Below, piece by piece: positions 3,114 through 63,546 of a stretch of DNA of 64,000 nt; the first letter of the stretch is position 1; every line of letters begins with the position of its first letter. This DNA is from Candidatus Bathyarchaeota archaeon (GTDB taxonomy: Archaea; Thermoproteota; Bathyarchaeia; Bathyarchaeales; Bathycorpusculaceae). The DNA is taken from NCBI GenBank assembly GCA_963775895.1, contig CAVZKL010000010.1, positions 32,001-96,000 of the forward strand. Reading direction: 5' to 3'. A program made the position numbers and the translations under genes. The notes under the pieces are model-generated. The model had not been told where the DNA came from. It saw only the letters and a program-made list of their open reading frames with translations, and made no database searches.

Positions 3114-3335
3114 GCGCGCTATTTCTGGTCAACCACACTATTCTTGGAGTGGCGAATCAACGCTCATCAAGGTTCAAGTTTCAGAGTTTGATCAAGAGAA
3201 ATCTTCGGACTGACTTTGGTATTACATCCCTATTGAAGTGAAGGCGCCCCAGACAAGGAAGATCAGGACGCAATAATTAGCGCGCGAGTCGATGTTAAGA
3301 AGAATAACAAAGTGTAACAAGTGACTTTGCGCGCG
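3114..3335. repeat. Three alternating GC runs (3114-3119, 3280-3286, 3329-3335) in the carB-aldehyde dehydrogenase spacer
   Basis: Read directly: tAGCGCGCTa, taGCGCGCGa, tGCGCGCGt. Confidence 0.75.
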
Positions 3336-3391
3336 TTCCTTTGACCGAAATATTAAAGAAAATCACTGTGGAAATGTTCTTCGGTGAGAGA

Positions 3392-4867
3392 ATGAGAAAT
3401 CGCAGTAATTATGGGCTTTTCATAAAGGGAGAATGGGTTGACTCGGTCTCTGGTAAGACTTTTCAAAGTGACAACCCGGCAAAACCCAAACAGATTCTGG
3501 GGGTTTTTCAGAAGGGAAACACTGAAGATGTGGCTAACGCTGTTGCGGCAGCCGAAGCGACGTTTGAGAGTTGGAGCGAAACGCCTGCTCCCAAAAGAGG
3601 TGTCTATCCTGTTGAGGGCTGCCCAGTTGCTGGGAGAAAACAAGGAGAAGTTGGCGAGAGAAATGACGATGGAGATGGGCAAAGTCATAAGTGAAGCCAG
3701 AGGCGACGTTCAAGAAGCCATCGACATCACTGAATACATGGCAGGTGAGGGCAGAAGACTGTTCGGTTTCACGACGCCTTCAGAGTTGCGGAAGAAATTC
3801 TGCATGACGATAAGGCGACCAGTCGGCGTTTGTGGAATAGTGACTCCTTGGAACTTTCCGATCGCTATTCCAGCATGGAAAATAATGGCCGCATTGATCT
3901 GCGGAAACCCGTAGTTTTCAAACCATCCTCAGACACGCCGCTCTGCGCGGTGAGGCTCGTAGAGATCTTGGAGAGAGCTGGCATTCCCAAAGGCGTGCTA
4001 AACATGGTCACCGGTTCTGGCGAAGACGCTGGAATGAGCCTTGTAAGAAACGAGAACGTCAGAGCAATTTCATTCACTGGACACAGAGACACAGGAGCCG
4101 TTATCTTGAAGGAGGCTGGTCTTAAGAGAGTCGGCCTCGAACTGGGTGGCAAGAACGGAATAATAGTACTGGCTGATGCTGACTTACGGCTGGCGGTGGA
4201 CGGTGTTATCTGGGGCGCTTACGGAACCACTGGACAGAGATGCACTGCAGCATCAAGAGTGATAGTTCAGGAGAAAGTGCAGAAAAAGTTTGAGAAGATT
4301 CTGATTGACAGAATAAAGAAATTGAAGCTGGGAGACGGTCTCGATCCAGCGACTGATGTGGGTCCACTGATCAACAAAGTAGCTCAAGAGAAAAGCGCAC
4401 GCTACGTTGAAATAGGGAAGAAAGAAGGTGCGAAGCTCCTGATCGGAGGAAAAGTTCCTAAGCGGGAAGGCTTCTTCTTCGAGCCGACCCTGTTCACAGA
4501 CTGTTCGACTGACATGAGAATTGCACAAGAAGAAATATTCGGTCCAATCCTTTCGCTGATATCTGTGAAGGACTTCGACGAAGCAATAGACGCCATAAAC
4601 TCCGTAGAGTACGGTCTCAGTTCCGCAATCTATACCCGAGACATTAAAGCCGCGTTTGAAGCGATGAACAAAATTGAAGCGGGGCTTACTTACGTGAACT
4701 CCAGCACGATCGGCTCCGAGGTTCATCTTCCCTTCGGAGGGGTAAAGCACACTGGCACAGGAGCACGGGAAGGCGGGATTGAGGGAATAGACGAGTTTTC
4801 TGAAACAAAAACCATCTACGTCGACTATTCTGGAAAACTACAGAGGGCTCAGATAGATATCGACTAG
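3392..4867 (+). CDS. NAD(P)-dependent aldehyde dehydrogenase (frameshifts near 3600 and 3905)
   Basis: Three consecutive ORF pieces give [34 protein letters not shown] and EEIFGP. GGTGA SD before ATG 3392. Confidence 0.93.
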
Positions 4868-5051
4868 AGAATGCGCTGAAGACTAGGATCAAAATTGTTA
4901 CCTTATGGGGAATATGGGGAGGATGCCGTTGGCTTGATTTCAGTTCACAACAGTAGCGCGCACTGTCGTAACGTGCAGAATCTCACGTAAAACGCGGTTG
5001 AACAATTTATATATGGACAGCGAACAATGAAGATAGAGAGGGATTTCATCA

Positions 5052-5753
5052 TTGCCTCTTGATCCCCTAGTCATCACTGCCATCGTGCTAGGGGTGATCA
5101 TCGTATGCTTGATCGTGATTTTCGGAATGCGCGGGCAACGTAGGAAACGCAAGAAGTCCGACGAGAGCGAGCCCGTTCCAGAGCTCAGGGGTTATCCATT
5201 CAAAGTCACTAAGACCGTTCCGACAGGCGATGCTTCACACGCTAAGGATGAGCTCCGAATACTGGATTTGGAGAGAGAGATACTCAGCGACGCCATCCGA
5301 CGATTGTACGAGGCTCATGCCGAAGGAAAGATAACCGAGCAAGAGAGAGATCGATTAGCCGAAACCTACAAGGCCAGAATGATGCTGGTCAAGGAGGCGA
5401 TGTCCAAAGACGAATCTCTGGTAGCCTTGCACGAGCTTGAAACGATGCAGGAAGATTTGATGAAACTCTTCAGCCAGAGATTCGATGAACTCAGCACAAA
5501 GATTGAAGAATTGCGTTCTAAAACAGAGACAAAACCGATTAAGGAGCTCACAATTGCTCCTAAAACGGTTGAGGAGGCAGAAGCGTCGAGCGAAGAGGGG
5601 AAAGGTGGCGATGAAGAAAAAGCAAAGAGAAAACGGAAGCCTCCAGCTCAAAAAGTTAGTCCGCGCACGGAAGCTGAGAGAAGAATAGAGGAAATACGAT
5701 CCGAAGTTGAAAAAGTTCTGGACAAGCTGGGTCAAATGGAAATTGAATCCTAA
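5052..5753 (+). CDS. Hypothetical protein: N-terminal TM helix plus long coiled coil
   Basis: 233-aa ORF with hydrophobic residues 5-25 followed by a basic patch and E/K-rich helices. TTTATATA box near 5006. Confidence 0.8.
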   Translation: MPLDPLVITAIVLGVIIVCLIVIFGMRGQRRKRKKSDESEPVPELRGYPFKVTKTVPTGDASHAKDELRILDLEREILSDAIRRLYEAHAEGKITEQERDRLAETYKARMMLVKEAMSKDESLVALHELETMQEDLMKLFSQRFDELSTKIEELRSKTETKPIKELTIAPKTVEEAEASSEEGKGGDEEKAKRKRKPPAQKVSPRTEAERRIEEIRSEVEKVLDKLGQMEIES

Positions 5754-7000: not shown

Positions 7001-7116
7001 GCCGGGGTAGCCTAGCCTGGCCAGGGCGCCAGACTCATAATCTGGAGAACAACCGAAGGGCCAAACGGGCGCCCAGTGTCCAGAAGTCGCGGGCTCGAAT
7101 CCCGCCCCCGGCACCA
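7001..7116 (+). tRNA. tRNA-Met(CAT), probably elongator, with a 38-nt intron at about 7048-7085 and encoded CCA
   Basis: Acceptor GCCGGGG/CCCCGGC-A-CCA; anticodon arm CCAGA-CTCATAA-TCTGG; T arm GCGGG-CTCGAAT-CCCGC. Removing the intron gives variable loop AGGTC. G1-C72 and lack of three G-C anticodon pairs argue against initiator. Confidence 0.9.
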
Positions 7117-9095: not shown

Positions 9096-9321
9096 GGAAA
9101 TGTTCTCCTTCCGAAATTCTAATTGAGTTTAAGTATTTAAGCAAATCCATGTGGCGACATCTCCCGCAAAATCCCCTTCTTTTTCTCTCCGTATGAATGT
9201 ATTCTAGACACTTGATACTAACATGTTCGGCGTACCGTCAAACCAGTGTGTTTTAACTGGCATCCTCAGACTATGGCACTAATAAATCTAATGTTCCACT
9301 CTCAGGTTTAGCAACGCATGC

Positions 9322-10016
9322 CTAAGATACCGTTGAGGCGCGCACGAAAAGCATTTGATTTCCGTTCTTGCTGACATGCGTTATTGTTCCGATTTTTCTG
9401 AGCGAATAAGTCATTTTTCGAGATTGATTAACGGATATTCCGAGGCTTTCGGCCAGATTTCTGTTCGAAAAGGGATCAGGCAAATCTTTAGGTAGGACTT
9501 TGAGGAAATCTGTTTTGTGTTCAAAGATTCGTCTTTCAAAAACGCGAATAAGCTTTCTGTCTTCTATGCTTGCGCCTTTCCTTCTCCAGCTTCCTCTTCC
9601 ATCGTTACACCATACTTCTTCTAGCTTCGACCATCAAAACTTCGACGCTGAGATTACCTTTGGAGAAGAGGCTCGGTATTCTGATTAATTCGCTGAAAAG
9701 GTCAGACAGGCGACCCTTCTTCGGAGATCTTCTTCTTCCAAATGTCTCTCCGGTGGCCGTCGATTTATGAACTATCCATTTTTCTCTTGGGTATAGGGTA
9801 GACTAGGCGAACCTTGTGGTCATTGAGCAGACGTAAGAGCTTCGGTTTTATTGCTGAAAAGTTGGCAATCTGTATTTCGATCAACAGGTCTCCTCGCACT
9901 ATGTCCACTATGAAATCGTCTACTTTGGCTTCTAGTTTGTCTCCCTCAAGAAAGTACCATTTCTTTATCGCAGAATGAAGTGAGCTTTCCCTTCCTGAGC
10001 TGAATGCATTATCCAT
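9322..10016 (-). CDS. Conserved hypothetical protein with PD-(D/E)xK nuclease-like N-terminus and C-terminal HTH-like region (two frameshifts)
   Basis: ESSLHSAIKKWY...FIVDIVRGDLLIEIQ; continues after shifts as KWIV...RRSPKKG, NDGRGSWRRKG, FSNRNLAESLGISVNQSRKMTYSLRK to TAG at 9322. Confidence 0.7.
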
Positions 10017-10260
10017 CAAAGTTAAGATCTGCCGCATTTTCGATATCGTATGAGCTTCACCCGATAAGAAGGTTCTCAATGCGCGCGCTCAGATCACGAG
10101 TGTCCGCACTTTAACTGTAATGCTTTTTCTTATATTACAATAAAACTAATGTTCTACTTTCCCTTCCAATGGCAAACTCCTGCAAACAATGACCTAAGAA
10201 AGGAAAGCGCGCGCGTGGCTTGTTAGATATGTATATAATCTATCTTCCTTTCTTCTTTCT

Positions 10261-10461
10261 ATGGATGATGGTATGGTACGGGTTAGTGTGGAAGGAATTA
10301 AGAACGGCCTTTACGCCAACACCGTGGCCCAGACAAAAACGTTCGACATGAACACAGAAGCCGCCATGTTTCCAGACGAATTCTACAGCTTCGTCAAAGA
10401 GTTGCAGGAACAACTAGCAGAAGGAAAAATAGACAGGATACTCATACAAAGACGGCCCTAA
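10261..10461 (+). CDS. 66-aa hypothetical protein bracketed by GC runs
   Basis: ORF with TATATAA box about 25-30 nt upstream; GC runs at 10207 and 10466. Confidence 0.55.
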   Translation: MDDGMVRVSVEGIKNGLYANTVAQTKTFDMNTEAAMFPDEFYSFVKELQEQLAEGKIDRILIQRRP

Positions 10462-10472
10462 TCCTCGCGCGC

Positions 10473-10513
10473 GGTTGGGTTGGCGGTAGAGTTTTATCCA
10501 AATCAAACCAGCC
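10473..10513 (+). repeat. Imperfect palindrome family, copy 1 (GGTTGG..GGTARAGTTTT..CCAAA..AAACC)
   Basis: GGTTGGGTTGGCGGTAGAGTTTTATCCAAATCAAACCAGCC, similar to copies at 18414, 19977, 20029 and 52300. Confidence 0.7.
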
Positions 10514-10714
10514 AATGCTAAATGCGCGCGCTTTTTCTTGTTTTTGGTCTTGGTCAAATCCTTCGACGGCAACATCTACTCAGACAAACCTTGAAAAGGT
10601 TAAAGAGATTGTGTCAACTAGTCTCATATTCTAATATGGTAACCCGAAGAAAACAAGGAACTTGCACTCGTTATTGACCAACTAATTCAACGCGCGCGCT
10701 AAGAAGGAAAAAGA

Positions 10715-10840
10715 ATGAGTGAAAGATACAGAAAATATGGTAGAGCAAAGAACTGCAGATGTAAGAACTGTGGGCTGGAGTTTAAGACAGAAGGAACTCC
10801 TAGGAATTGTCCTAGATGTCATTCAGTCATTGAGGTCTAG
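10715..10840 (+). CDS. 41-aa Zn-ribbon microprotein (not in ORF track)
   Basis: MSERYRKYGRAKNCRCKNCGLEFKTEGTPRNCPRCHSVIEV*, with CxxC...CPxC. Confidence 0.55.
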   Translation: MSERYRKYGRAKNCRCKNCGLEFKTEGTPRNCPRCHSVIEV

Positions 10841-11217
10841 CGCAATGGGGTCTGCTTAGTCTTCTTAAGAATCGCCATTAATCCTTTGAAAATCCCGATG
10901 AATTTCAATCTTCTGTGATATTCACGTGGGTTAGCTTTCTCATCAAATTGGATCTCGTTGGCCTCTTTTGTGTACTTCTTTAACAGCTCCTCCGTGAAAT
11001 TTGGGGAAAATAGTAGGAGAGCTAATTCGTAGGCATTTTGAGTCCCCTCGACTTCTTGTTTTTGCTCGCGTTCTGCCGCAGCTTTGAAAGCTTCTTCCTC
11101 AGTTGTTACTGCGCCGAAAAAAACGTGTAAGGTTCTTAGAGGGTAGCCGAAATTCCAATTCCGTTCAATAGCCGACTTTACTCGACTATCATCAGAACAT
11201 GGAGCCAACACGAATAT
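10837..11217 (-). pseudogene. Probable 5'-truncated hypothetical gene starting at a GC run
   Basis: Protein-like C-terminal 125 codons of ORF 10837..11388. The upstream part overlaps the GNAT gene and crosses the 11218 GC run. Confidence 0.4.
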
Positions 11218-11251
11218 CGCGCGCGCGAAATGAAGCGCACGTACTATGATC

Positions 11252-12052
11252 TTAGAGCTTTTTGACAAAAAAAGAAACTGTATGGTCAACCTTGAACCCG
11301 AGTTTCTGATAAAGCCTTTCTGCGTCTCCTCCTTTATCAGTTTGTAACGTGTGCAGGTCATTCCCTTCTTTGAATGAGTCGGAAACAACTTGCATTGTTA
11401 ACTCTGTTCCTATTCCACGTCTCCTGTATTCTTTGAGTGTTGAAACATTGAGGATGCATCCCGTTTTGTCTTTGGAAAATAAACTGATTGTTCCAACAGG
11501 TTGTCCGTCTGCATAAGCCAAGTAGTTTCTAGCTCCCTTTCGCATCCAATCGACAACAAATCTGTCAAACACTTCCTTCCATTCAGCTGGCATCTCGAAA
11601 CTCTTGACCATCAGACTGTCAAAAAGGTCTATCCCATCTTCTTCTATCTCATTCACCGTGACATTTGGATTAAGTATGTTCTCTGATGTTTTTCCCTCAA
11701 AGACCATGATTGATTGCTCTAACTCTTTCTCAAACCCGTAACGTTCAAGGAGTGAAATGAACGAGGGAAGAGTCAACGGAGAAACTCGAAAACAAGCAAA
11801 AGGAAGTCCTCTCGACATAAAATGACTGATGATCGTTTTGACGAAAACCTCAGCCCTGTCTTCAGTGACGTTGACGTTTGTGACATGGTTAAAGACAATC
11901 ACGGGGATTTGGAGCCAATGAGCAACAATCGCTCCTTCCAGCTCCACAGTCTCGGGGAAAATTTGTACGAAATCGTGCCAAAACTTTTCAAGCCTATCAA
12001 CATTTTCCAAAATGTGCCACCATATCTCGTATGCTCGACACCTAGGAGACAA
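11252..12052 (-). CDS. GNAT-family N-acetyltransferase
   Basis: C-terminal NVSTLKEYRRRGIGTEL (motif A) and AERLYQKLGF. Confidence 0.88.
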   Translation of the reverse strand: MSPRCRAYEIWWHILENVDRLEKFWHDFVQIFPETVELEGAIVAHWLQIPVIVFNHVTNVNVTEDRAEVFVKTIISHFMSRGLPFACFRVSPLTLPSFISLLERYGFEKELEQSIMVFEGKTSENILNPNVTVNEIEEDGIDLFDSLMVKSFEMPAEWKEVFDRFVVDWMRKGARNYLAYADGQPVGTISLFSKDKTGCILNVSTLKEYRRRGIGTELTMQVVSDSFKEGNDLHTLQTDKGGDAERLYQKLGFKVDHTVSFFVKKL

Positions 12053-12154
12053 AAATAGTTGGAATGAGTATTAAAGACTAAGCGCGCGAGCTCGTAAAGC
12101 ATAAATGATTGCTAGCACCATATTCTTTTGTAGTGTACTCCGAGTTGAACAATT

Positions 12155-12634
12155 TTGGATCTTCGATTAAGTGATATGACTCTGATCGGACTTATTCTGT
12201 CAGCGGTTCTGTTCTTCGGTAGCCTAATACTGCTTTATCAAGTCGTCACTCTAAATCCCGTAAGTTCTTTTTCGGTTTCCGTGATAATTCTATCAACGTT
12301 TTTCGGCTTAGGTCTTGGAACAATTATAGGCTGGTTCATAACATTTGACTTGTTGAAAAATCTGAGGCAGAAGACTGAATATAAACAAATTCAATCTAAG
12401 ATCTTCATGTTTACCTTCGTAGTTGGGCTTCCCTTATTTGTGCTAGTTTCTTTGATCGTCATTCGTACTCTTCGTGTGGCTTTCATGGTTGGAGAAATAA
12501 TCTTTGTATTTTCAGCAGTATTCACTTTTTTCAGTACAAGAATGGCTCTTATCACTAGATTTGAACATCAAACTAGAAAAATCATCATGATGGATTACTT
12601 TAACTTGTCTGGCAGAATATTCATAAAATCTTGA
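12155..12634 (+). CDS. Hypothetical four-TM membrane protein
   Basis: Four hydrophobic segments, AT-rich codons, GC runs on both sides. Confidence 0.65.
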   Translation: MDLRLSDMTLIGLILSAVLFFGSLILLYQVVTLNPVSSFSVSVIILSTFFGLGLGTIIGWFITFDLLKNLRQKTEYKQIQSKIFMFTFVVGLPLFVLVSLIVIRTLRVAFMVGEIIFVFSAVFTFFSTRMALITRFEHQTRKIIMMDYFNLSGRIFIKS

Positions 12635-12652
12635 TAGAGAGCGCGCGCTAGC

Positions 12653-13345: not shown

Positions 13346-13609
13346 ACGCGCTCGCAGCAAGCAAGACCTCCCACTTTAGAAGGTTACGGAGAGCTCATAA
13401 AGGCTCCGTTGACCTAAGGACAGTCCGTTCTCCTCACAACAAAAGCAGCGCGCGCTCCTGCAAACAATACGTTGAAAAAGGAAGCGCGCTTCTCTCCGTA
13501 AAAATCAATATAGAACGAAAAATGTTTGTTAGCTGTTTTTTACAAAAATCGCCTCCACATGGGTGCTTATTTCCTGCCTATTGCTATACATGATTTCGAG
13601 GTGATGTAA

Positions 13610-15399: not shown

Positions 15400-15403
15400 T
15401 AAT

Positions 15404-16612: not shown

Positions 16613-16625
16613 CCGAGGACAACAA

Positions 16626-53306: not shown

Positions 53307-55181
53307 CTATTTGACCCTGAGGAGTCGAAGCGAGTTGAACATCACTAACAACGCGTTACTCTCATGAATGATGCTAGCACTCAACGGCGTAACGACTCCC
53401 AAGGTTGCGAGAACAATACCGATGGCATTAACAACCAAGGCAAAGACAATGTTGAGCTTCACGATGCGCATCGTTTCCTTACCGATCCTCAGAAGCTTCG
53501 GTATACCCTCAAGACGATTCGCCGCAAGAGTGATCCCAGCAGTCTCGACAGCAACATCTGTTCCAGTGAGACCCATAGCAACACCCACATCAGCAGTAGC
53601 GAGAGCAGGCGCATCATTAATCCCGTCACCCACCATAAGGACAACCCTCCCGTCCTGCTCAAGACGTTTAACATAATTGACTTTTTCGGAGGGTAGTAAG
53701 TCGGAGATAACCTCGTCGACGCCGATCCGCTTTCCCACGGTCTCGGCGACTTCCTTGCGATCTCCAGTCAGCATTATTATCTTCCTTGCACCGTTTTTCC
53801 TCGCCTCAGCTATTACCTCAACGACACCATCTCTCAAAGTATCGGATATGAGGAGTGCCCCGATGACCTTGTCGTCCTTAGCTACGAAGATGGTGGACTG
53901 TGTGACGCCTTCCCTTTCAACGTACGCCTTTGCCTCCTCCGAGATCACAACCCCCTTCTCCTTCAACAGCTTCTCATTACCGACAATAAGCTTCACCTTA
54001 TCATGGGTGACACATATTCCGAGTCCTGGGACAACTTGGAACTCAGAACATGCCACCGGCTCCAGTCCTAAACTTTCAGCCTTTTTCAGGACCGCTCGAG
54101 CAAGAGGATGCTCAGAGTATCTCTCTGCAGCAGCTGCTAAGCTGAGTACGTCATCTTCCGAAGCACCGTTGAAGCACCTAACCTCAGCAACTTCAAGCTG
54201 CCCCAGAGTCAGTGTGCCAGTCTTATCCATGACGATGGTGTCAACTTTACTTAGTTTCTGAAGGCTCTCACCATTCCTTACCAGTATTCCTTTTCGAGCC
54301 GAGTTCCCTATGCTCGCAGCTATCGCCATAGGGGTAGCCAACGTGAGCGCGCACGGGCACGAGATTATGAACACCGATGCCATCCTCAAGGGTTCCTTCG
54401 TCAAGAAAAAGACGCTGAGACCGAGGAGGAGAATGACAGGTATGTAGTAGCCCGCGAACCTGTCAGCAAGCTTTACTATCGGAGATTGATGCTCCTTCGC
54501 TTCGTGAACCATCGTGATAATTCTGCCATAAGTGGTCTTCTCACCAACCACCTTAGCCTTAACACGCAACGCGCCAAGCTCAACGATCGAGCCGCTCAGA
54601 ACCTCGGATCCCACAGTTTTCTCAACAGGCATCGATTCGCCAGTCACGGATGACATGTTCACAGGCGCGCTTCCTTCCACCACCACGCCGTCAACGGGAA
54701 TCATGCCGCCTGGCTTCACAACAACTATATCATCGACAAGAATCTCAGAGACGGGAACCTCAACCTCATCGCCGTTCCGTATGACGAGAGCTGTCTTGGG
54801 GAAAGCCTCGATGAGCTTTTTTATGGCGTTTGAAGCCCTGTCGGAGACCAAGCCTTCCAGAACCTCACCTCCACCAAGCATAATAACAACCACGCATGCC
54901 GCCAAATATGCGCCTAACCAGATCGAGGTGATGATCGCAACCGTGGCGAGGAGGTCTATCCCGAAGACCCCCGATAGAAGAGCGCTCAGCGCGCTATGCC
55001 CAATGAAGATAACACCGAGCACCGCACCGAGAAGAGCCAAACTTGTGGATACATCAATCGGCAGCAGCGAGAAAAGCTGAGAGATCCAGCTAGCTGTTGC
55101 CATCGTGACAGTTGACGCAAGAAGCATGACTTTTTTCTTGTTAACCAATGAACCCACCGCAGACAAACGGCATATGCACAA
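53307..55181 (-). CDS. P1B-type heavy-metal-translocating ATPase without N-terminal metal-binding domain
   Basis: TGES, SCPC, DKTGTLT, SEHP, GDGINDAPAL, HESNA. Confidence 0.92.
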   Translation of the reverse strand: MCICRLSAVGSLVNKKKVMLLASTVTMATASWISQLFSLLPIDVSTSLALLGAVLGVIFIGHSALSALLSGVFGIDLLATVAIITSIWLGAYLAACVVVIMLGGGEVLEGLVSDRASNAIKKLIEAFPKTALVIRNGDEVEVPVSEILVDDIVVVKPGGMIPVDGVVVEGSAPVNMSSVTGESMPVEKTVGSEVLSGSIVELGALRVKAKVVGEKTTYGRIITMVHEAKEHQSPIVKLADRFAGYYIPVILLLGLSVFFLTKEPLRMASVFIISCPCALTLATPMAIAASIGNSARKGILVRNGESLQKLSKVDTIVMDKTGTLTLGQLEVAEVRCFNGASEDDVLSLAAAAERYSEHPLARAVLKKAESLGLEPVACSEFQVVPGLGICVTHDKVKLIVGNEKLLKEKGVVISEEAKAYVEREGVTQSTIFVAKDDKVIGALLISDTLRDGVVEVIAEARKNGARKIIMLTGDRKEVAETVGKRIGVDEVISDLLPSEKVNYVKRLEQDGRVVLMVGDGINDAPALATADVGVAMGLTGTDVAVETAGITLAANRLEGIPKLLRIGKETMRIVKLNIVFALVVNAIGIVLATLGVVTPLSASIIHESNALLVMFNSLRLLRVK

Positions 55182-55272
55182 CTGAAGCGAACCACGAAAA
55201 TAGGAAAGCCATTGTCAACTTCTCAATCATAACTTACCAACTAGCTAGGACCAAGAGCAACTTCAGTTGATG

Positions 55273-55542
55273 CTAGAAGAGTTTTGATAGGGCTTCTCTG
55301 AGATCTGTGAGACTTTCATTAGCTTTTCCAGACTCTACTGCCGCAACCATACACGTCTCTATATGATCCTCCAATATGATTCGAGCGACCTTGTCCAAAG
55401 CTGATCTCACTGCTGCTATCTGAATCAGAAGGTCAGAGCACCCTCGGTCCTCTTCAACCATTTTCCTAATGCCGTGGACATGCCCCTCTATCTTTGACAG
55501 TCTTTCATCCACAGTTTTCCTATTCTTGTGAACCGAATTCAT
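55273..55542 (-). CDS. CsoR/RcnR family metal-sensing repressor
   Basis: RLSKIEGHVHGIRKMVEEDRGCSDLLIQIAAV...EDHIETC. Confidence 0.92.
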   Translation of the reverse strand: MNSVHKNRKTVDERLSKIEGHVHGIRKMVEEDRGCSDLLIQIAAVRSALDKVARIILEDHIETCMVAAVESGKANESLTDLREALSKLF

Positions 55543-55545
55543 ATA

Positions 55546-55566
55546 TATCCCCTCAGGGGGAGGGGA
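55546..55566. promoter_or_regulatory. Candidate CsoR/RcnR operator (C-tract/G-tract) between TATA box and start codon
   Basis: TATCCCCTCAGGGGGAGGGGA; minus-strand TTTATAT at about 55574-55580. Confidence 0.5.
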
Positions 55567-55698
55567 GCCACTCATATAAACATTTTTCTTCGACCAAGCG
55601 ATTTCGCGCGCGCTACCAAGTAGGTTGTAGTGCTGATTATTGAGACTGAAACGTTAAATTACACAGTCTTTTGCTATGAATGCACTGCGAGTTAGGAA

Positions 55699-56391
55699 CT
55701 AGTAATATCTCTTTAACGGGTTTAGCTGATCTGTTGCCAATTTCACTTGCCGAGGAACTAGTATGCCTCGCCAATCCACTCTAATGGTGCTCTTTCTGGA
55801 GCTTTTAATATTAACATTGTGCACATGAAGGGCGTAAGCCATTGCACGATCTTGGGGGTTCTCTATCTGGAGCATTTGTTTTAGACTTAGGTGCTCGAAG
55901 ACTCGGCGAATTGGGCGTAAAGAGTTGCCGTGGCAAGAGATAGCAACGTTACCAGGATTTTGTCGGAGCCATTCTTCAAGCTGCACCAGAAAGGGTAATG
56001 TTCGATTTTCAACCATCTTTAGGCTTTCTCCTTCTGGTGGTGGAAAATCGTAGCCTCGGTGAATCTTGGCAAACCATTCAGGCCTTTCCATGGCAACCTT
56101 GATCTTGCTTTTACCTTGAAGCAAACCATAGCAACGTTCGATGAGCCGGTCGTCCGTGAAAACTGGAATTGGAGAATGCGTTTCAAGAACGATTTCAAGA
56201 GTTTTTCGAGCTCTCTTAAGGTGTGAGGTAAAAGCATAGTCAATCTTGTCTCGCCTGAGTTGTTTTGCAATCTCTTGTGCTTGCGAAAGTCCTTTCAAAG
56301 TAAGTTCTGGGTCGCGCCAGCCCGAGAATATTCCTCGGCTGTTATCAGTTGTCTCAGCATGTCTAAAAACAAACAACCTGCAAATCATCAA
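55699..56391 (-). CDS. gpmA: Histidine phosphatase family, cofactor-dependent phosphoglycerate mutase-like
   Basis: RHAET, FSGWRD, ERCYGLLQG, PPEGESL, HGNSLR. Confidence 0.8.
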   Translation of the reverse strand: MMICRLFVFRHAETTDNSRGIFSGWRDPELTLKGLSQAQEIAKQLRRDKIDYAFTSHLKRARKTLEIVLETHSPIPVFTDDRLIERCYGLLQGKSKIKVAMERPEWFAKIHRGYDFPPPEGESLKMVENRTLPFLVQLEEWLRQNPGNVAISCHGNSLRPIRRVFEHLSLKQMLQIENPQDRAMAYALHVHNVNIKSSRKSTIRVDWRGILVPRQVKLATDQLNPLKRYY

Positions 56392-56494
56392 CCGCTTCCT
56401 CCCGTAGGCGCTAATGCAATCTTCTAATAGAACATATTACTTTTCGCTCACTGTGAACACCCAGCCTGTTGAACTAAACACGGAGTATGAATAA

Positions 56495-57856
56495 GTGAAG
56501 AAAACAAAGATTATCTGTACAATCGGTCCGGCTAGTCTTTCTCGAAACACGCTTAAGAAAATGTATCGCGCTGGAATGAACGGCGCCAGAATAAACACAG
56601 CTTATGGGACACTTGACCAGTACAGAGTTATCATTAGCAGTCTGCGAGAAGTGGCAGACATCCCAATAATCATCGATGTTAAGGGGCCTGAAATACGGCT
56701 CAAAACAAAAGACAGAAGGACTGTCAACAAAAGCGATATTCTTAAAGTAGGCAAAGACGAAAAAATAAGCTTCAACAACAACATCTACGACGATGTGGAT
56801 GTTGGTGATAACGTTCTTATTGACAATGGTAGGCTAAGAACGCAAGTCGTAGAAAAACAAAAAGGCGTATTGAAATTGCTTGCAACAACAAGCGGCGAAA
56901 TAGACGACGGAAAAGGAATTAACATACCTAATAAAAAGTTCGCAGTTCCAACACTCTCAGGTAAAGATCTGGAAATAATAGATCTCGCAAAAGAGAAAGA
57001 TGTTGAGTTCATAGCTCTTTCATTTACTAGAAATCCTGAAGACGTGAATAACCTGAAGAAGGTGACCAATGGGTTCAAAGGCGCAATCATCGCAAAGATC
57101 GAGAATTCCGAAGGTGTCGACAAATTCGATGAAATTCTTGACGTTGCAGACGGAATCATGGTGGCAAGGGGCGACCTAGGAGTTGAAATAGAACCTGAAA
57201 AGGTCCCACATATCCAGAAATTAATAATCAGAAAATGCAATCAGAAGGGAAAGATCGTTGTGACGGCAACAGAAATGCTTGAATCCATGACTTACCAGCC
57301 AATGCCCACCAGAGCTGAAGTCAGCGATGTTGCCAACGCAATCTTGGATGGAACGGAAGCGACAATGCTTTCTGGAGAGACGGCAATAGGGCAGTACCCT
57401 GTAGAATCCGTCTTGATGATGTCCAAAATAGCGAACGAAACTGAAAAGTCAGTAGAAGGACAAGTTGAAGGCGAAGGATTCATCAACATCTCAGACACAA
57501 TAAGCAAGGCAGTTCAAAGAATATGCCAAGAAATGCCCGTAGGCAAAGTTGTCACGCTAACCAGGTCAGGCTACACGGCTCGGATGATTTCAAGATTCAA
57601 GATTCTTCAACCGATAATCGCCGTTACGCCGAACAACCTTGTCAAGAAACAACTTGAACTGTCGTTTGGTGTCTACCCAGTGCACATTGATTACCTTAAA
57701 GAAGATGACCACATTCGGACAACTGCAAACAAGCTTCATGCAATGGGCCTCATCGGTGACCAAGACACAATTCTTTTCACCGCAGCCTTCAGAACCTCCA
57801 AACCACATTCTAGCAATCTTATTGAGATACACAACATCAGGGAACTCGCCTGTTGA
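56495..57856 (+). CDS. pyk: Pyruvate kinase
   Basis: KTKIICTIGPAS, KGPEIR, AKIE, MVARGDLGVE, PTRAEVSDVANA, MLSGETA. Confidence 0.96.
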   Translation: MKKTKIICTIGPASLSRNTLKKMYRAGMNGARINTAYGTLDQYRVIISSLREVADIPIIIDVKGPEIRLKTKDRRTVNKSDILKVGKDEKISFNNNIYDDVDVGDNVLIDNGRLRTQVVEKQKGVLKLLATTSGEIDDGKGINIPNKKFAVPTLSGKDLEIIDLAKEKDVEFIALSFTRNPEDVNNLKKVTNGFKGAIIAKIENSEGVDKFDEILDVADGIMVARGDLGVEIEPEKVPHIQKLIIRKCNQKGKIVVTATEMLESMTYQPMPTRAEVSDVANAILDGTEATMLSGETAIGQYPVESVLMMSKIANETEKSVEGQVEGEGFINISDTISKAVQRICQEMPVGKVVTLTRSGYTARMISRFKILQPIIAVTPNNLVKKQLELSFGVYPVHIDYLKEDDHIRTTANKLHAMGLIGDQDTILFTAAFRTSKPHSSNLIEIHNIRELAC

Positions 57857-58097
57857 CTGAAACATAACAGACTCCCCAAGTTGACTGGCGTGAACATTCA
57901 AACCACCGTCCATGCAAGAGTTAGAAAGGAATTGCTGGAAGTCGCGTGAAGAAGAAACGAAAGAAAAGGAAAAAAGGGGCTAACCTGCAAGAAAAAACGG
58001 CTTCACCTTGAAGAGGGCTCTATTGATCTAGGAGATGTACGGTCGGCGTGGAAAAACCAAAAGCGTAATCTCTTCTGAACGCTGATGTAATGGGGAC

Positions 58098-59378
58098 ATG
58101 GAGGAAGAACCTTTGAGAATTGGTTTCTTTGTGTGGGAATATCCACCACAACTCACAGGCGGACTTGGAACTTACGCAGAATACATAACCCGCGAGTTTG
58201 TCGAGTTGGGGCACGATGTCACCGTTTTCACCCTCAATCCTGGGAATCTTAAAACAACGGAGATGCTGAAGGGAGTGGAAGTTCATCGTCCGATGATTGC
58301 TGATGCGAGCAACGTCTTTCCAATGTTCGTTGCGGAAGATCTGGTAAAATGGGGAACAAACATTCGCTTTTTTAGTGATATCTTCATCTACAATGTCCTA
58401 AGCGCGACTAAATTCATCAATGGGCTAATCAGGAAAGAAGGTTATAAATTCAACGTGGTCTGTGTTCATGATTGGCTAAGCAGCATTGCAGGCATCATAG
58501 TTAAGAATGAAACAAGTATTCCAGTGGTCTTTCACGTTCACAGCACTGAATGGGGAAGAAGTGGAGGGCAGGGTTCCCAAGTAGTTTCACATCTTGAGCA
58601 GGCGACAGCGCAATTAGCGAACAAAGTGATCACTGTGAGTAATGCAATGAGGGATGACCTGACTCGCCATGGTTGGAATGAATCTAAGATCAACGTCGTC
58701 TGGAATGGCGTTGACCCAGAGCGTTACAACCCGAAAAACTGTAAACAAGAAGAAATCGATGAAATAAGAAGAAAATATGAGATACCAAAAGATTGGAATT
58801 TGCTGCTGTTTGTTGGCAGACTAACGTGGGTCAAGAGCATCAGAAACTTAATACAAGCTCTTCCGATGGTTTTAAAGGAGTATCCGAAAACCAAGCTTGT
58901 AATTCTAGGTAAAGGGGAAGAACAACAGGACATATTGGAGATGGCAAGCAGACTCGCTGTCAAGGAGAACGTCATTTGTCGATTTGAGTTTATCCCTGAA
59001 GACGAAAGAATTCTGCATTATGCGAGCGCGGACGTCTGCATATTTCCATCAGTATACGAGCCGTTTGGAATAGTAAGCCTCGAAGCGATGGCCATGGAGA
59101 AACCAATAGTAGTCGGTGCTCACGGAGTGGTTGGGTTCCGAGAGCAAGTCGTATCTTCTGGTCCTGACCAAACAGGAATTCACGTCAACGGTGAAGACCC
59201 TGCTGACATAGCCTGGGGGATAGAAGAGGTGTTAAGAGACCCAAAGAGGGCCAAAGCTTGGGGCGAAAACGGTCGAAAAAGAGTTCTTGATCTTTTCACT
59301 TGGAGAAAAGCTGCAGAGCAAACAATTGACGTATACAAGTCACTTGTGAGCGATAAGAGCGAAAACGATACTTTCTGA
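58098..59378 (+). CDS. GT4 glycosyltransferase (glycogen/alpha-glucan synthase-like)
   Basis: WEYPP..GGLG, HDWL, HSTEWGR, PSVYEPFGIVSLEAMA. Confidence 0.9.
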   Translation: MEEEPLRIGFFVWEYPPQLTGGLGTYAEYITREFVELGHDVTVFTLNPGNLKTTEMLKGVEVHRPMIADASNVFPMFVAEDLVKWGTNIRFFSDIFIYNVLSATKFINGLIRKEGYKFNVVCVHDWLSSIAGIIVKNETSIPVVFHVHSTEWGRSGGQGSQVVSHLEQATAQLANKVITVSNAMRDDLTRHGWNESKINVVWNGVDPERYNPKNCKQEEIDEIRRKYEIPKDWNLLLFVGRLTWVKSIRNLIQALPMVLKEYPKTKLVILGKGEEQQDILEMASRLAVKENVICRFEFIPEDERILHYASADVCIFPSVYEPFGIVSLEAMAMEKPIVVGAHGVVGFREQVVSSGPDQTGIHVNGEDPADIAWGIEEVLRDPKRAKAWGENGRKRVLDLFTWRKAAEQTIDVYKSLVSDKSENDTF

Positions 59379-59407
59379 CTGAAAACTCAAGAGAGGAAAC
59401 ATCTCAA

Positions 59408-59562
59408 TTGGAACGATCGTCATCCTACAGATCCGGTCTTACAACTGCTGAGGCAGAGAAGCGACTTAAGGAATACGGACATAACGAGATTCCCGAAAAA
59501 GGAGTCAGCTCATTGCGAAAGTCTCTAGGCTACTTCTGGAGTCTATTCCCTGGAGCGCGCGC
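59408..59562 (+). pseudogene. N-terminal stub of a P-type cation (H+-type) ATPase ending at GCGCGCGC
   Basis: GLTTAEAEKRLKEYGHNEIPEKGVSSLRKSLGYFW matches the Cation_ATPase_N pattern; family similarity ends at the GC run. Confidence 0.8.
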
Positions 59563-59647
59563 TACATGGTCGAAAGTTATAAATAATATACAGTCACAGA
59601 AAGGAAGTTTCAATCTTGGACTGAAAAGTTTCGGCAGATGAAAAGAA

Positions 59648-60898
59648 ATGTCGGTGAACTCCGGAGACACCGCGTGGATGATGGTTGCGACGGGGCTCGT
59701 CATGCTCATGACGCCCGCTCTAGGATTCTTCTATGGAGGACTCGTCAGAAGAAAAAACATTGCCAATACGATAGTGCAGTGTTTTGCCATTTTTGCCGTC
59801 GTAAGCTTGGTTTGGACTCTCTGGGGCTACAGCCTCGCATTCGGCACGTCAATTAACGGTTACATCGGAAATCTGGACAAGGTGCTTTTGAACAATGTCG
59901 GTGTGATGACTCCGACAGCCGAAAAATTCGGAGCACCGGGAATCACAGAAATGCTCTACTACGCTTTTCAACTGATGTTCGCGGCCATCACGCCGGCCTT
60001 GATCGTGGGAGCATTCGCTGAAAGAATAAAGTTTCGTTCACTGCTCATCTTCACCGTACTTTGGTCAACCGTTGTCTATGCCCCGATCGCACATTGGGTA
60101 TGGAACCCCAATGGCTGGATCCATACGCTTGGGGCCATCGACTTCGCAGGCGGCACGGTAGTGCACGTGTCGGCTGGAGTTACTGCTTTGGCCGCAGCCA
60201 TCGTTGTGGGACCGCGACTGAAACGCGAGAACATAGAAGGAAAGCCAAGCAACGTTCCGTTCGTAATTCTGGGCGCAGCTTTGTTGTGGTTTGGATGGTT
60301 CGGCTTCAATGCAGGCAGCGCCCTGTCCGCCAGTCCTCTTGCCGTAAGCGCCCTCGTGGTAACCAACCTGTCTGCAGCCGCTGCAGCGGTGAGCTACATG
60401 ATTGTTGATACGCTCATGAAGGGCAAGCCTTCTGCAACGGGCGTCGCAATCGGCGCTGTCTGCGGACTCGTAGCAATAACCCCGGCTTCCGGCTTTGTCA
60501 CTCCGGCTTCAGCTATCATCATAGGTTTGGTGGCAGGCGTGATATCTAATCTCGTCTCGACATGGCGGACTCGCACACGTTTGGACGACACATTAGATGT
60601 TTTCGCATGCCACGGAGTGAGCGGAATATGGGGTTCAATAGCTACAGGACTGTTCGCGACGACTGCGGTGAATTCGTTGGGCAAGAACGGATTGTTTTAC
60701 GGAAATCCAAGCCAGTTCCTCGTTCAAATCGAAGCGGTCTTGGTCGTCATAGTATTTGCCTTCACCGTATCTTTTGTTCTTCTCAAAATCGTCAACGTGT
60801 TCTCTAAGCTTAGAGTGACTTCGGAAGAAGAGGAACGGGGACTTGACCTAAGCCAGCACGGAGAGGAAGCATACGTTCCATCAGACACAGCTTCCTAA
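59648..60898 (+). CDS. amt: Ammonium transporter
   Basis: GDTAW, FQLMFAAIT, DFAGGTVVH, WFGWFGFNAGS, DDTLDVFACHG, GLDLSQHGE. Confidence 0.96.
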   Translation: MSVNSGDTAWMMVATGLVMLMTPALGFFYGGLVRRKNIANTIVQCFAIFAVVSLVWTLWGYSLAFGTSINGYIGNLDKVLLNNVGVMTPTAEKFGAPGITEMLYYAFQLMFAAITPALIVGAFAERIKFRSLLIFTVLWSTVVYAPIAHWVWNPNGWIHTLGAIDFAGGTVVHVSAGVTALAAAIVVGPRLKRENIEGKPSNVPFVILGAALLWFGWFGFNAGSALSASPLAVSALVVTNLSAAAAAVSYMIVDTLMKGKPSATGVAIGAVCGLVAITPASGFVTPASAIIIGLVAGVISNLVSTWRTRTRLDDTLDVFACHGVSGIWGSIATGLFATTAVNSLGKNGLFYGNPSQFLVQIEAVLVVIVFAFTVSFVLLKIVNVFSKLRVTSEEEERGLDLSQHGEEAYVPSDTAS

Positions 60899-61008
60899 AT
60901 ACTCGCATACGTGATTGATCAGAAATCTTTGCGTTTCGCAATTTCATACAAAGAAAGAAAAGGCGAGAGACTCGCCACGTGGATACTTTGCTTCTTTAAG
61001 ACTTCAGT

Positions 61009-61296: not shown

Positions 61297-61552
61297 TTTT
61301 CTTCACTCCTTTTTTTGGTTGTTATGTGTGTAGCGTTGTGTCTCTGTCTACATGTTCTGAACAGAACGCTACCGCGCGATTATAATGCACAAGTCTCCTT
61401 TATAAATCCGCTGAAAACAATGTTCTATTTCATTCCTCTATGACAAGCTCCAACACGCTTTACCAACGCCTGTTTTAGTAGCGACCGTGCAAAAAGGCTA
61501 TGTTCTTGAACGCGCCTGTTGCAGAATGCACGACTGAATGCTGGAGAAGCAA

Positions 61553-62240
61553 CTTGAACGTAAAGGGAATAATGATCGACTACGGCGACACCCTAGCGTA
61601 CACCGACGAAGCAGCCAACAAAGTGCATGACAAAAAGGTGCTCTCAATCTTGAGAAAACACGGCTACGCGCTAGGTCCAGAACACGTGGACTCGACGTTT
61701 GCAGCACTCTACAGAAGTAGTTCAACAGGCGAAATGAAAGACCTTCGAGAATTCTACTCCATCTTTCTAAGAAAGCTCAACGTACCAGAAGAGAAAGCGC
61801 TGATAAATCAGCTCATCGAAGCACGAAACCGCCTCTACGTCCCCGCGGTCAAACTGTACGATGGAGCAATCCAGACTCTTTCAACTCTTCAGAAAAAGTA
61901 CGCGCTGGCACTAGTGTCCAACTGCGCCGTAGGAACGATCGACATAATAAAGTCCCTAGGACTCACAAAGTATTTTGACCAAATCGTTCTCTCCTACGAA
62001 ATCGGAATCAGAAAACCCGACAAACGAATCTACCTCGAAACTCTTCGAAGAATCCAACTCCCGGCTGACGAATGCATGTTCGTTGCGGATGAAATCAGCG
62101 ACTTGGAAGGAGCACGATCCGTTGGAATCATAACGATGCTGGTGCACCAAGGATCAAACACGCTCAGCGAAGCCCAGAACCCTGATTTCAAACCCGACTT
62201 TGAATGCGACCACATATCGCAGATCACCGAATATCTCTAG
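61553..62240 (+). CDS. HAD-family hydrolase
   Basis: DYGDTL, LVSN, KPDKRIY, VADEISDLEGA. Probable TTG start at 61553. Confidence 0.82.
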
Positions 62241-62253
62241 ACAAGAACTAGTA

Positions 62254-63546
62254 GCGCGCGCAGAGAATTCAAGCACAGACACATCCCCAAAACAGAGACA
62301 CCCAAAGGCCCGCAGAACATATTTGGATCCTAATATTCATGATACATTGAAACCGAGGAGGGGAGGTACACAATAAGCTTTTTTTCAGCGAATAAACCTT
62401 CAGCGCACCCAACCCACAATAAACCCATGACCTCCTAGCTCGCGCGCGCGGTTCAACGCCGTCCAGCGTTCTACGGAACGGCTAGGTCTTTTCTTCCCAC
62501 CCTCGCCAACCCGTTTGAACGTCTTTGAACGATGAACGGGATAACCGCCTCAACAAACAAGAAAGCAAGCGTGCCATAAACAACCCCGCCGATAACGTCC
62601 ACGACATAATGCTCCCCGAGATACACCGTGCTAAACCACACGCCGAACGGAAGAACAAGCACGGGCAACGCCTTCACTCTCACTATCTTGAACGCGTACA
62701 ACGAGATCAACCACGGATACATCGCATGAAGACTCGGAAACGCAGCGAAAGGATTAGACTGAACAAAATCGAAGATCGTGCGATAAAAAGGCACACCCAA
62801 GTGCTGATCCAACTGAAACAAGACACGAGTAGCCTTAACCCCAAACCACGGAGGCGCCACCGGATAGAAAAGGAAAGTGATCAAAGCCGCATACGTCCCG
62901 ACGACAAGAGTCAGAGTGTACCCCCCATAGTTCTTGGGATAAAACTTCCACAAAACGAACGCAAAAGTCACCGGAAGTACAAAATGCAAAGAATAAAAAA
63001 AAGCTCCCATATAATCCAGGAAAGGACTTCTAAAATACTGCTGCAGCACGAGAGTCGGAATCGAACCGAACAATCGCAAATCAGCATTTATAGGCCAAGT
63101 AACATGCACAGCTCCCGAAAGACTGGGAATCAACCCGTAAAAAGCTTCATAACCCAACAGAAGCGCCACAAAAGGAAACCAATCCTTCACAAAACGGCGA
63201 CTCCTCCTATCGTACGCAGCGTACATGAAAAAACACAACACAATGATCTCAGGCCCAGGAATCACCCCATAGGCCAGACAAAAAACCAGCAAAATCGCCA
63301 CAAAAACAGCCGGAACCCCAACAGTCAAGATGCGTGAAAAACGCTCCTCAGATCCCCCGCCAGATTCTGATACGGTTTCTTTGTTCATGGAGTTTTCACG
63401 CTCGCTTTTCGGGGATGCCAGCCACCTCGTTAGGCAACTTTTCGGACAAACGCAACTTTGACCCAAACCAGTTCACGTTCAACAACCATCGTCTATTAAA
63501 CAGTTTCTCAGAATCAGACCAAACTCCACGTCACGAACGTGCGCGC
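62254..63546. repeat. GC runs at 62254-62261, 62441-62450 and 63541-63546 around the PAP2 gene
   Basis: Read directly. Confidence 0.85.
62471..63388 (-). CDS. PAP2-superfamily membrane protein (AUR1/IPC-synthase-like)
   Basis: YPVAPPWF, AAFPSLH, VYLGEHYVVDV. Confidence 0.88.
   Translation of the reverse strand: MNKETVSESGGGSEERFSRILTVGVPAVFVAILLVFCLAYGVIPGPEIIVLCFFMYAAYDRRSRRFVKDWFPFVALLLGYEAFYGLIPSLSGAVHVTWPINADLRLFGSIPTLVLQQYFRSPFLDYMGAFFYSLHFVLPVTFAFVLWKFYPKNYGGYTLTLVVGTYAALITFLFYPVAPPWFGVKATRVLFQLDQHLGVPFYRTIFDFVQSNPFAAFPSLHAMYPWLISLYAFKIVRVKALPVLVLPFGVWFSTVYLGEHYVVDVIGGVVYGTLAFLFVEAVIPFIVQRRSNGLARVGRKDLAVP

Follow-up and report, generated by a model that had tools for sequence, protein, structure and literature searches.

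We analysed a 64,000-nucleotide window of the genome of a Candidatus Bathyarchaeota archaeon (assembly GCA_963775895.1, contig CAVZKL010000010.1, positions 32,001 to 96,000; G000:C10:32001-96000 in our labels) for a short palindrome of alternating G and C, A-(GC)4-T, that recurs between its genes. The palindrome stands at the seams between gene-sized modules of DNA, its copies turn over fast, and a given module recurs in many contexts, which part exactly where the motif ends. The Bathyarchaeia rank with the most abundant uncultured archaea of sediments, peat and wetlands. The source genome, G000, is a metagenome-assembled genome (MAG) of 1.77 Mb in 28 contigs (GC 47.7%, completeness 88.8%, contamination 3.5%); labels such as G001 and G002 denote Bathyarchaeia comparison genomes, and C denotes a contig. 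By run we mean a maximal alternating-GC stretch, and motif runs are those of at least 8 nt. Contig ends of G000 are duplicated at 90-98% identity (C12:1-3426 with C6:30501-33922, C13:1-4415 with C25:25935-30350, and C16 with C2), indicating that the MAG mixes close strains, which helps the comparison of alleles and is a caveat for copy counts. The incompleteness of MAGs limits every statement below that a protein family was not found.

The window holds 26 runs of at least 8 nt, from 10081 to 62450, where about 0.7 were expected. GCGCGCGC is present in 24 copies against a mean of 0.72 in 100 dinucleotide-preserving shuffles (largest value 3; none of the 100 reached 24), and CGCGCGCG in 12 copies against a mean of 0.63. 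An earlier note made on this DNA from its sequence had counted 26 runs by eye, had estimated about one octamer per window by chance, had placed only the run at 27491 inside a confident coding sequence and had described a core stretch free of intergenic runs. The recount gave exactly the same number, and no intergenic run lies between 21260 and 42229; besides 27491, the runs at 11218, 53042 and 53143 fall only within weak open reading frames (ORFs) that were not called as genes. Positions 3114 and 63546, which that note took as the outer limits of the pattern, are 6-nt runs. Alignment to relatives revealed three strain-specific islands that make up 43% of the window, and 23 of the 26 runs lie within them (P = 2e-6). 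The orientation of the genes around the runs is mixed. The features are as follows, with the strand given where one applies.

9130-9143, plus strand: left 14-bp direct repeat TAAGTATTTAAGCA flanking island 1, in one copy at the empty site of relatives.
9144-21259: island 1, 12.1 kb, at this locus only in G000; carries 16 of the 26 runs; modules of 1-3 genes in mixed orientation, separated by the motif.
9152-9301, plus strand: repeat of ~150 bp at the left end of island 1, ending in ...CACTAATAAATCTAATGTTCCACTC; related copies adjoin motifs elsewhere.
10081-10088: 8-nt run, left border of a 118-nt repeat unit.
10207-10215: 9-nt run, left border of module 10207-10473.
10222-10472, plus strand: module containing a 57-aa ORF; its identity to G009:C15 and G000:C7 is 99%.
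10466-10473: 8-nt run (CGCGCGCG), right border of the module with the 57-aa ORF.
10524-10531: 8-nt run, exact start of homology to G009:C27 (96%) and G000:C22 (95%).
10691-10699: 9-nt run, left border of the zinc-ribbon cassette.
10715-10840, plus strand: 41-aa zinc-ribbon gene (CxxC...CxxC), with half site TAGCGC at its end (to 10843).
11218-11227: 10-nt run, in a weak ORF not called as a gene.
11257-12088, minus strand: GNAT acetyltransferase module (82% identity to G005:C7) that ends on the right at the 7-nt run 12082-12088.
12641-12648: 8-nt run, between ORF 12155-12634 (plus strand) and the hydrolase gene 12653-13360 (minus strand).
13448-13455: 8-nt run.
13484-14102, plus strand: DUF7347 module, 95% identical to G005:C8, bounded by 6-nt runs; G005 has the full octamer at its left.
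14206-14213: 8-nt run.
14948-14955: 8-nt run.
15961-15969: 9-nt run, directly after which homology to G005:C18 (90%) starts.
16069-17968: three-gene module (DUF350, 273-aa ORF, 153-aa ORF), 91% identical to G009:C20.
18758-18765: 8-nt run, at the stop end of the B3/4-domain gene 18765-19430 (minus strand).
19936-19944: 9-nt run.
20790-20798: 9-nt run; a contig of data run X1 has different DNA on its left.
21252-21259: 8-nt run, right terminus of island 1.
21260-21273, plus strand: right 14-bp direct repeat TAAGTATTTAAGCA, abutting the motif at 21252-21259.
27491-27498: CGCGCGCG in the conserved gene 27355-27693 (minus strand), the only copy within a confident gene call, most likely there by chance.
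38258-43537: island 3, 5.3 kb, missing from this locus in G009 and G006 and closed on its right by the motif at 43530-43537.
42230-42237: 8-nt run, left border of a radical-SAM module, where homology to G005 (79%) and G008 (90%) starts.
43530-43537: 8-nt run, right border of the radical-SAM module and of island 3.
50810-60944: island 2, 10.1 kb, missing from this locus in 6 congeners, with 5 runs inside.
52926-52933: 8-nt run.
53042-53049: 8-nt run, in a weak ORF not called as a gene.
53143-53150: 8-nt run, in a weak ORF not called as a gene.
55605-55613: 9-nt run.
59555-59562: 8-nt run, between the glycosyltransferase and ammonium-transporter genes.
62254-62261: 8-nt run, directly past ORF 61500-62240 (plus strand).
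62441-62450: 10-nt run.

The genes of island 1 are small and unrelated to each other (GNAT, alpha/beta hydrolase, DUF7347, AsnC, DUF350, B3/4, UPF0047 and NIPSNAP). In all 10 congeners the DNA corresponding to about 9143 joins directly to that at about 21260, and the empty site, with a single copy of TAAGTATTTAAGCA, was present in 8 of the 9 loci fetched from relatives. Pieces of the island recur elsewhere at 82-99% identity whereas the core DNA next to it matches those genomes at 71-78%, indicating that the pieces move between species. The island gave no near match among plasmids or phages, Rfam held no family for the region of the ~150-bp repeat, no integrase was detected among the 20 ORFs scanned (17 of them in island 1), and neither IntI nor attI was seen in the window. 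A casposon, which the 14-bp repeat had suggested, was rejected: an intact Cas1 and terminal inverted repeats are both lacking, and the repeats at other joints are 3 and 6 bp long.

The homology of these pieces ends on the motif. Homology segments starting at 10524, 10692 and 13484, and one ending there (16070-17968), have their boundary exactly at the outer edge of the motif in both partners. The module at 10222-10472 carries the motif at both ends in G000 and in G009 within unrelated flanks, and the three-gene module ends on GCGCGCGC (17961-17968) in both of these genomes. The TAG stop codon of the zinc-ribbon gene overlaps the motif in other copies of the gene; in the window only the half TAGCGC remains. 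The G005 orthologues of the runs at 42230 and 43530 (79% identity) read GAGCGCTC and GTGCGCTC.

To put numbers on these borders we counted the ends of high-scoring segment pairs (HSPs), leaving out ends within 60 nt of a sequence end and, depending on the analysis, HSPs shorter than 150-500 bp or below 80-88% identity. Over all the sequence analysed, among HSPs of at least 88% identity and 150-3000 bp, 43 of the 199 unique ends fell within -12 to +3 nt of a run and only 3 lay 13-30 nt beyond one; for HSPs of 70-85% identity the corresponding figure was 16 of 545 ends, and an occupancy of 1.7% would result if all HSP ends were intergenic. When all HSPs of a self-BLAST of G000 were taken the effect was modest (of 1506 ends, 32 lay no more than 3 nt from a run), and it sits in the HSPs of at least 85% identity. 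At 102 joint pairs the motif was present in both partners in 11, in one partner in 30 and in neither in 61. A 20-letter query that covers the end of the zinc-ribbon gene plus the motif retrieved 14 metagenome contigs with 9 different contexts right after the motif; all 14 hold the motif by construction of the query, so that only the divergence of context is informative. Logan contigs of the data runs X1, X2, X5 and X6, which are short, supplied one breakpoint, at 20789/20790, the other joints reflecting a repeat family; no clean empty-site reads were found among them, and the parts of the window that they leave uncovered were not interpreted. The same joints are seen in single-contig genomes, in contigs of four independent data runs and in the 14 metagenome contigs, and since independent assemblies and runs share them the motif is not an assembly artefact. 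The association of the motif with joints is solid.

Across the genome GCGCGCGC is the commonest of all 8-mers in G000, with 254 copies against about 21 expected from a dinucleotide Markov model, and its density by contig ranges from 0 to 3.3 per 10 kb. With our own hexamer-based and crude gene calls (1928 genes, 80% of the DNA), 224 of the 263 runs of at least 8 nt fall between genes, 30 inside them and 9 across a gene end. Coding DNA holds 27 copies of GCGCGCGC in 1.40 Mb, about the chance level, versus 227 copies in 0.37 Mb of intergenic DNA, and runs of 8-9 nt are per kb ~30 times denser in intergenic DNA than in genes. In 249 genomic copies the flanks favour A at -1 (118 copies), T at +1 (116), T at -2 (95) and A at +2 (90); past +/-2 no position carries more than 0.05 bit. 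The information being confined to these four flanking positions, the element is a bare palindrome, (T)A(GC)4T(A), and does not form the core of any longer repeat. Counts of maximal runs in G000 are 313, 118, 155, 79, 26 and 2 for lengths of 6, 7, 8, 9, 10 and 11 nt, with a bump at 8 and a sharp drop past 10; no bump at 8 was seen for AT, AC, AG, CT or GT dinucleotide runs. Slippage of a (GC)n microsatellite, or an artefact of assembly or library, would account for run lengths that vary from 6 to 14 nt, the longer runs being seen in G080 and G024. The peak at 8 with its sharp stop after 10 in G000, the lack of a bump in other dinucleotide repeats, the flank preference (-1 A and +1 T, 47% each) and the recurrence of the same joints in independent data make this explanation scarcely credible.

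As an octameric palindrome that is the most frequent 8-mer of its genome and lineage-specific, the motif resembles HIP1 (GCGATCGC), the highly iterated palindrome of cyanobacteria. For HIP1 a drive has been proposed in which a methyltransferase together with short-patch repair converts near-cognate sites, and in the HIP1 literature the palindrome is accompanied by two orphan methyltransferases. The many one-mismatch variants of our motif in intergenic DNA (530, versus 29-111 for eight GC-only control octamers not overlapping the motif) would suit such a drive. However, a drive would act at synonymous sites too, and coding DNA has the motif at about chance level (27 of 254 copies), whereas HIP1 is common inside genes. 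Nor does a methyltransferase track the motif: the C5 methyltransferase family PF00145 was found in 2 of 10 congeners and neither in G000 nor in the single-contig G001, and PF01555 occurs in 4 of 5 motif-rich genomes, the exception being G080 with its 601 copies, where it was not found. The motif further differs from HIP1 in lying at indel and homology joints and in not being conserved between close genomes. We regard a methylation and repair drive as very improbable.

Within intergenic DNA the motif is unevenly placed. Convergent spacers carry 1.23 copies per kb, tandem spacers 0.59 and divergent spacers 0.32. Of the 121 runs in tandem spacers, 30 follow the upstream stop codon within 30 nt and 7 come within 30 nt of the next start; 42 of the 121 copies fall within the first fifth of the spacer after the stop, the 30 nt preceding starts being avoided. 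Of the 62 runs in convergent spacers, 29 have a stop codon within 30 nt, and gene starts are at a median of 196 nt from the motif. The earlier note's claim that the runs sit near stop codons thus holds in part, and its preferred flanks, as well as the excess over a Markov model and the intergenic bias for which it had proposed a genome-wide count, are borne out by the figures above. These positions and the symmetric flanks could mean that the motif is a selected cis signal, such as a 3'-end or terminator, an insulator, or a site for a chromatin or regulatory protein, with homology ends coinciding with it only because both lie at gene ends. Archaeal terminators are oligo-T tracts, which speaks against a terminator, and a gene-end position does not explain why homology stops at the outer edge of the motif in 9 contexts, why HSP ends form a sharp spike there, or why the motif stands alone at deletion-type joints.

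Conservation bears on the same question. We compared 66 sites with 2 partners each (132 cells) in syntenic DNA of 120-140 kb from G001, G008 and G002, which are mutually 91-95% identical. Of these cells 107 were unaligned, 10 lay at an alignment edge and 15 were aligned, the alignments spanning 36-62% of the DNA; some unaligned parts may have homologues outside the fetched stretches. The octamer is intact in 6 of the 15 aligned cells, survives as a hexamer in 4 and is lost in 5; the 6 of 15 kept compare with a neutral expectation of 0.56 at 93% identity, a difference that is not significant. Copies seem to be made continually and then to decay. A signal under selection should be retained better than neutral DNA at this identity, and the motif is rare between conserved syntenic genes and dense in strain-specific DNA; we therefore consider a selected cis signal quite unlikely.

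Indels between the three close genomes show what stands at new joints. The pairwise comparison covered 320, 540 and 328 kb and, after leaving out rows with both gaps above 25 nt or either gap above 20 kb, gave 53 rows, in which one locus may count in two pairs. In 8 of the 53 rows, at 6 loci, the short allele is a bare A(GC)nT and the long allele measures 0.18-4 kb, as in gaaactg-AGCGCGCGCT-aagcag versus 302 bp. At 4 of these 6 loci the long allele is motif-free at both ends; at 1 it is flanked by motif halves, the 184-bp insertion standing within an 11-nt run with no letters lost or gained. Likewise, AGCGCGCGT stands opposite 433 bp in the strain-variant contigs C16 and C2 of G000, and upstream of the zinc-ribbon gene CGCGCGC+TAAG stands opposite 20 nt. 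Three rows (2 loci) are insertions into a motif-free target with the motif 1 nt from one joint, namely a 325-bp insertion in G008 and a 4.9-kb insertion in G002, each with the motif at one end; in islands 1 and 3, too, just one end has it. On the two sides of a 1750-bp insertion stand GCGCGCGCT and GCGCGCT, and one motif-bounded slot holds two unrelated cassettes of 1.07 kb in G001 and G002. Other joints carry direct repeats of 3, 6, 9, 12 or 14 bp, and one of them belongs to an ordinary insertion sequence (IS) element with inverted ends. A 6.9-kb insertion at G002:C2:118447-125309, absent there in G001, has 25-nt terminal inverted repeats (GATACTGTTAACTTAAAGGACATGA...) and a 9-bp target duplication and looks like an ordinary IS-type element.

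Several of these loci recall a site-specific cassette system, in which a recombinase or nuclease acting on a 10-12-bp site, TAGCGC-GCGCTA, would exchange DNA between copies in the manner of integron attC sites or by restriction and ligation. The swap of unrelated cassettes in one slot, the clean splitting of an 11-nt run by 184 bp, the 1750-bp insertion with the motif on both sides, the half site TAGCGC where another genome has the full site and the modules with the motif at both ends in different genomes all fit it, and the symmetric A/T flanks suggest recognition by a dimeric protein. The arrays are integron-like as well, with gene-sized units separated by a recurring palindromic site and cassettes swapped in a slot and shared across species. 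Integron attC sites, however, measure ~60-140 bp, whereas the motif has 8-12 bp and no further structure, shorter to our knowledge than any known recombinase site, and unlike integron cassettes the genes face both ways and carry their own upstream regions. Most targets of clean insertions are motif-free, many insertions are one-ended, and bare-motif alleles face motif-free long alleles; the pattern of one site in the empty and two in the filled allele, as in an integron, was seen at the 184-bp and 1750-bp loci but not at island 1, at the 325-bp and 4.9-kb insertions or at the bare-motif alleles. GCGC, CGCG and GCGCGC show no avoidance in G000, although a cognate restriction enzyme would predict it, and the tyrosine recombinase family that G000 has in multiple copies is not tied to the motif, occurring in 27 of 31 relatives including motif-poor ones. 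A dedicated cassette system is thus unlikely, though it deserves a serious hearing.

The earlier note had proposed that the octamer is a crossover or joining site through which gene-sized pieces are gained and lost, and had suggested testing whether breakpoints in related genomes fall on it and looking for a co-occurring recombinase, methyltransferase or nuclease; as refuting outcomes it had named, among others, a motif equally common between conserved core genes and an artefact. Of the ends of recently shared segments 43 of 199 fall on the motif, and neither of these two outcomes was found to apply. Given the solid association with joints, the idea of a joining site for gene-sized pieces is partly supported: the motif marks joints of gained, lost, swapped and exchanged pieces and is concentrated in strain-specific DNA. 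Not supported as stated is a two-site, integron-like crossover, given the motif-free targets, one-ended insertions, bare-motif alleles and mixed orientation, and no family tested among the proposed enzymes co-varies with the motif.

The families searched gave the following picture. The tyrosine recombinase (Pfam Phage_integrase) is encoded at C18:103699-104709, C23:15689-16759 and C22:61632-62591 of G000, besides many C-terminal fragments, and its presence in often several copies per relative suggests many integrated elements in the order. Cas1 (PF01867) is mostly represented by fragments in the genus and does not track the motif; fragments and pseudogenes are scattered in G001, G008, G009 and G005, most congeners have no intact cas1, and the flexible regions look like stores of gene fragments. 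The palm domain of PolX (PF14792) and Prim-Pol (PF09250) were not found, and neither tracks the motif. The z-alpha domain (PF02295) was detected in 0 of 5 genomes, but control genomes were equally silent and the negative carries no information. Clustering of the G000 proteins encoded near motifs gave no enriched family.

A bacterial-type end-joining operon is complete in G000 at C22:27397-30452 and encodes the LigD Prim-Pol, Ku, an ATP-dependent ligase and the LigD 3'-phosphoesterase. Ku is rare in archaea; Ku (PF02735) was found in 70 of the 251 Bathyarchaeia genomes sampled and, among the 31 relatives, in 8 of 11 within the genus versus 1 of 20 outside it. As a writer of the motif Ku was rejected, since over the 251 genomes it is present in many motif-poor ones (g23, f34) and was not found in G219, G080, G089, G105 and G244.

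The motif itself is not confined to the genus. All 10 congeners carry 29-464 copies, and other genera of the first family sample 0-14; in the class sample of 251 genomes 28 have at least 100 copies, the trait being patchy rather than genus-specific. These 28 include G080 (601 copies), G089 (373), G244 (346), G105 (325) and G219 (262), and some high counts, notably those of genus g61, match equally high counts of the control word and may just reflect base composition. The 420 kb analysed of G080 (a single-contig genome, 39% GC) and the 140 kb of G219 (43% GC) show the same bump at 8-10 nt and the same A...T flanks, and in the densest stretch of G080 the motif stands between ordinary genes of amino-acid catabolism.

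This patchy distribution by lineage, the movement of modules between species and the one-ended insertions with the motif 0-2 nt from the joint would be expected if the motif were a start or recognition site for DNA transfer or uptake, like a DNA uptake sequence or uptake signal sequence, a packaging site (pac), an origin of transfer (oriT) or HIP1, with transferred fragments beginning at it. HIP1 has recently been linked to horizontal transfer and transformation (PMC13756078). A transfer site leaves unexplained the bare-motif alleles at deletion-type joints and the insertions inside a run. Known uptake sequences, moreover, are non-palindromic and enriched in core genes, and we hold a transfer site to be distinctly improbable.

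The reading we prefer, tentatively and at somewhat less than an even chance, is that in several lineages of Bathyarchaeia the flexible genome carries A-(GC)4-T as a short palindromic joint element, a scar that arises at joints and is later broken again. In a first step, illegitimate joining, either a deletion or the capture of a foreign or ectopic fragment, would leave a self-complementary GC-alternating unit of ~8-10 nt at one joint, where the unit would act as filler or linker. In a second step this palindrome, being very stable, orientation-free and probably Z-DNA-favouring, would become a preferred place to break and rejoin. Modules would consequently come to be bounded by the motif, reshuffled and passed between species, each event adding copies and old copies decaying through mutation. 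This two-step model covers all the joint classes seen. A more specific form of it, possible but doubtful, is a DNA-joining pathway that seals broken or foreign ends with the self-complementary 10-mer AGCGCGCGCT as a natural linker, which would then serve as an orientation-free breakpoint or microhomology and make individual genes exchangeable as modules. The 10-mer might be written by an enzyme or derive from self-templated oligonucleotides, and would be both scar and substrate of a cassette traffic that needs no recombinase.

Several observations weigh against the joint-element reading. Insertions have two joints, of which usually just one carries the motif, and an automatic test scored 42 of the 53 indel rows as motif-free, 3 of which carry the motif on reading. 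Placed on the tree ((G001,G002),G008), which was inferred from identities, the bare-motif alleles do not agree in polarity, as two resemble deletions and one an insertion that consumed the motif, and recombination between strains could blur this polarity further. Island 2 (50810-60944) has no motif at either border, and 0 of 24 ends of the internal repeats of G080 lie on a run. The division into coding and intergenic copies depends on gene calls that are crude and our own. Finally, no protein family tested tracks the motif across genomes, and we know of no end-joining pathway that writes a defined 10-mer.

Other known systems share single traits with the motif. Like repetitive extragenic palindromic (REP) sequences and bacterial interspersed mosaic elements, it is intergenic, biased to 3' ends and convergent spacers and present at the borders of variable segments. 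REPs are imperfect hairpins of 20-40 bp, whereas a bare 8-10-mer cannot fold alone; its flanks are not conserved, and the Y1 transposase PF01797, expected of a pair of REP and REP-associated tyrosine transposase (RAYT), was not found in G001, G219 and G080. Unlike a miniature inverted-repeat transposable element, the motif has nothing conserved past position 2 and no fixed target duplication, the joint repeats measuring 3, 6 and 14 bp. The mobile GC clusters of yeast mitochondria are likewise GC-rich and palindromic, lie in AT-richer spacers, are polymorphic between strains and are tied to recombination and deletion joints; they measure 30-50 bp and form sequence families, whereas the motif, set against this description, is a single 10-mer in archaeal chromosomes. 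In having extra letters exactly at new joints, deletions included, the motif resembles filler DNA, N and P nucleotides and telomere healing. Known fillers, however, have a random sequence or are copies of neighbouring DNA, and telomere healing depends on a reverse transcriptase, while RVT_1 (PF00078) was found in 0 of 31 genomes and Ku and LigD, although present in G000, do not track the motif over the 251 genomes.

No report of GCGCGCGC as an iterated archaeal element was found in the literature searched, and supplementary octamer tables outside that search could bear on its novelty; a term search of Elhai 2015 (PMC4390886) found neither 'GCGCGC' nor 'archaea'. We place the motif among the short interspersed palindromic repeats tied to genome plasticity, and the joining mechanism behind it has a real chance of being new. 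A bare palindrome of 8-10 bp shows where pieces of the flexible genome meet, turns up at new joints and delimits modules that pass between species. If a dedicated activity writes or uses it, this would be a route of cassette exchange unlike integrons, REP/RAYT and HIP1, and it could yield an enzyme with a specificity of 8-10 bp. Even without a mechanism the motif is a practical marker, by which recent insertions, deletions and swaps can be read from a single genome, and its patchy spread over the 251 genomes makes the responsible gene findable by phylogenetic profiling.

Three further features of the window were recorded. A repeat of 80 bp at 62318-62398 (CATATTTGGATCC...GAAACCGAGGAGGGGAGGTACACAATAAGCTTTTTTTCAGCGAATAA) has 36 copies in G000 that are 92-100% identical; it is intergenic with a T-run at its end, its first ~50 nt recur in congeners, and in some copies the 3' part is swapped for its own reverse complement (GGCTGAAAAAACAGC). 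No Rfam family matched this repeat; it may encode a small RNA or be a mobile unit that acts as promoter or terminator. A second repeat, GGGTTTGGGTTTGGGGCAAAACTTTACCCCAACC, of ~40 nt at 18414-18453, has dozens of copies across the genus and contains a short hairpin (GGGG...CCCC). The only match in the window at the Rfam gathering score is a tRNA gene of 113 nt at 7001-7113, which ARAGORN did not report; introns are common in archaeal tRNA genes, and this gene presumably carries one.

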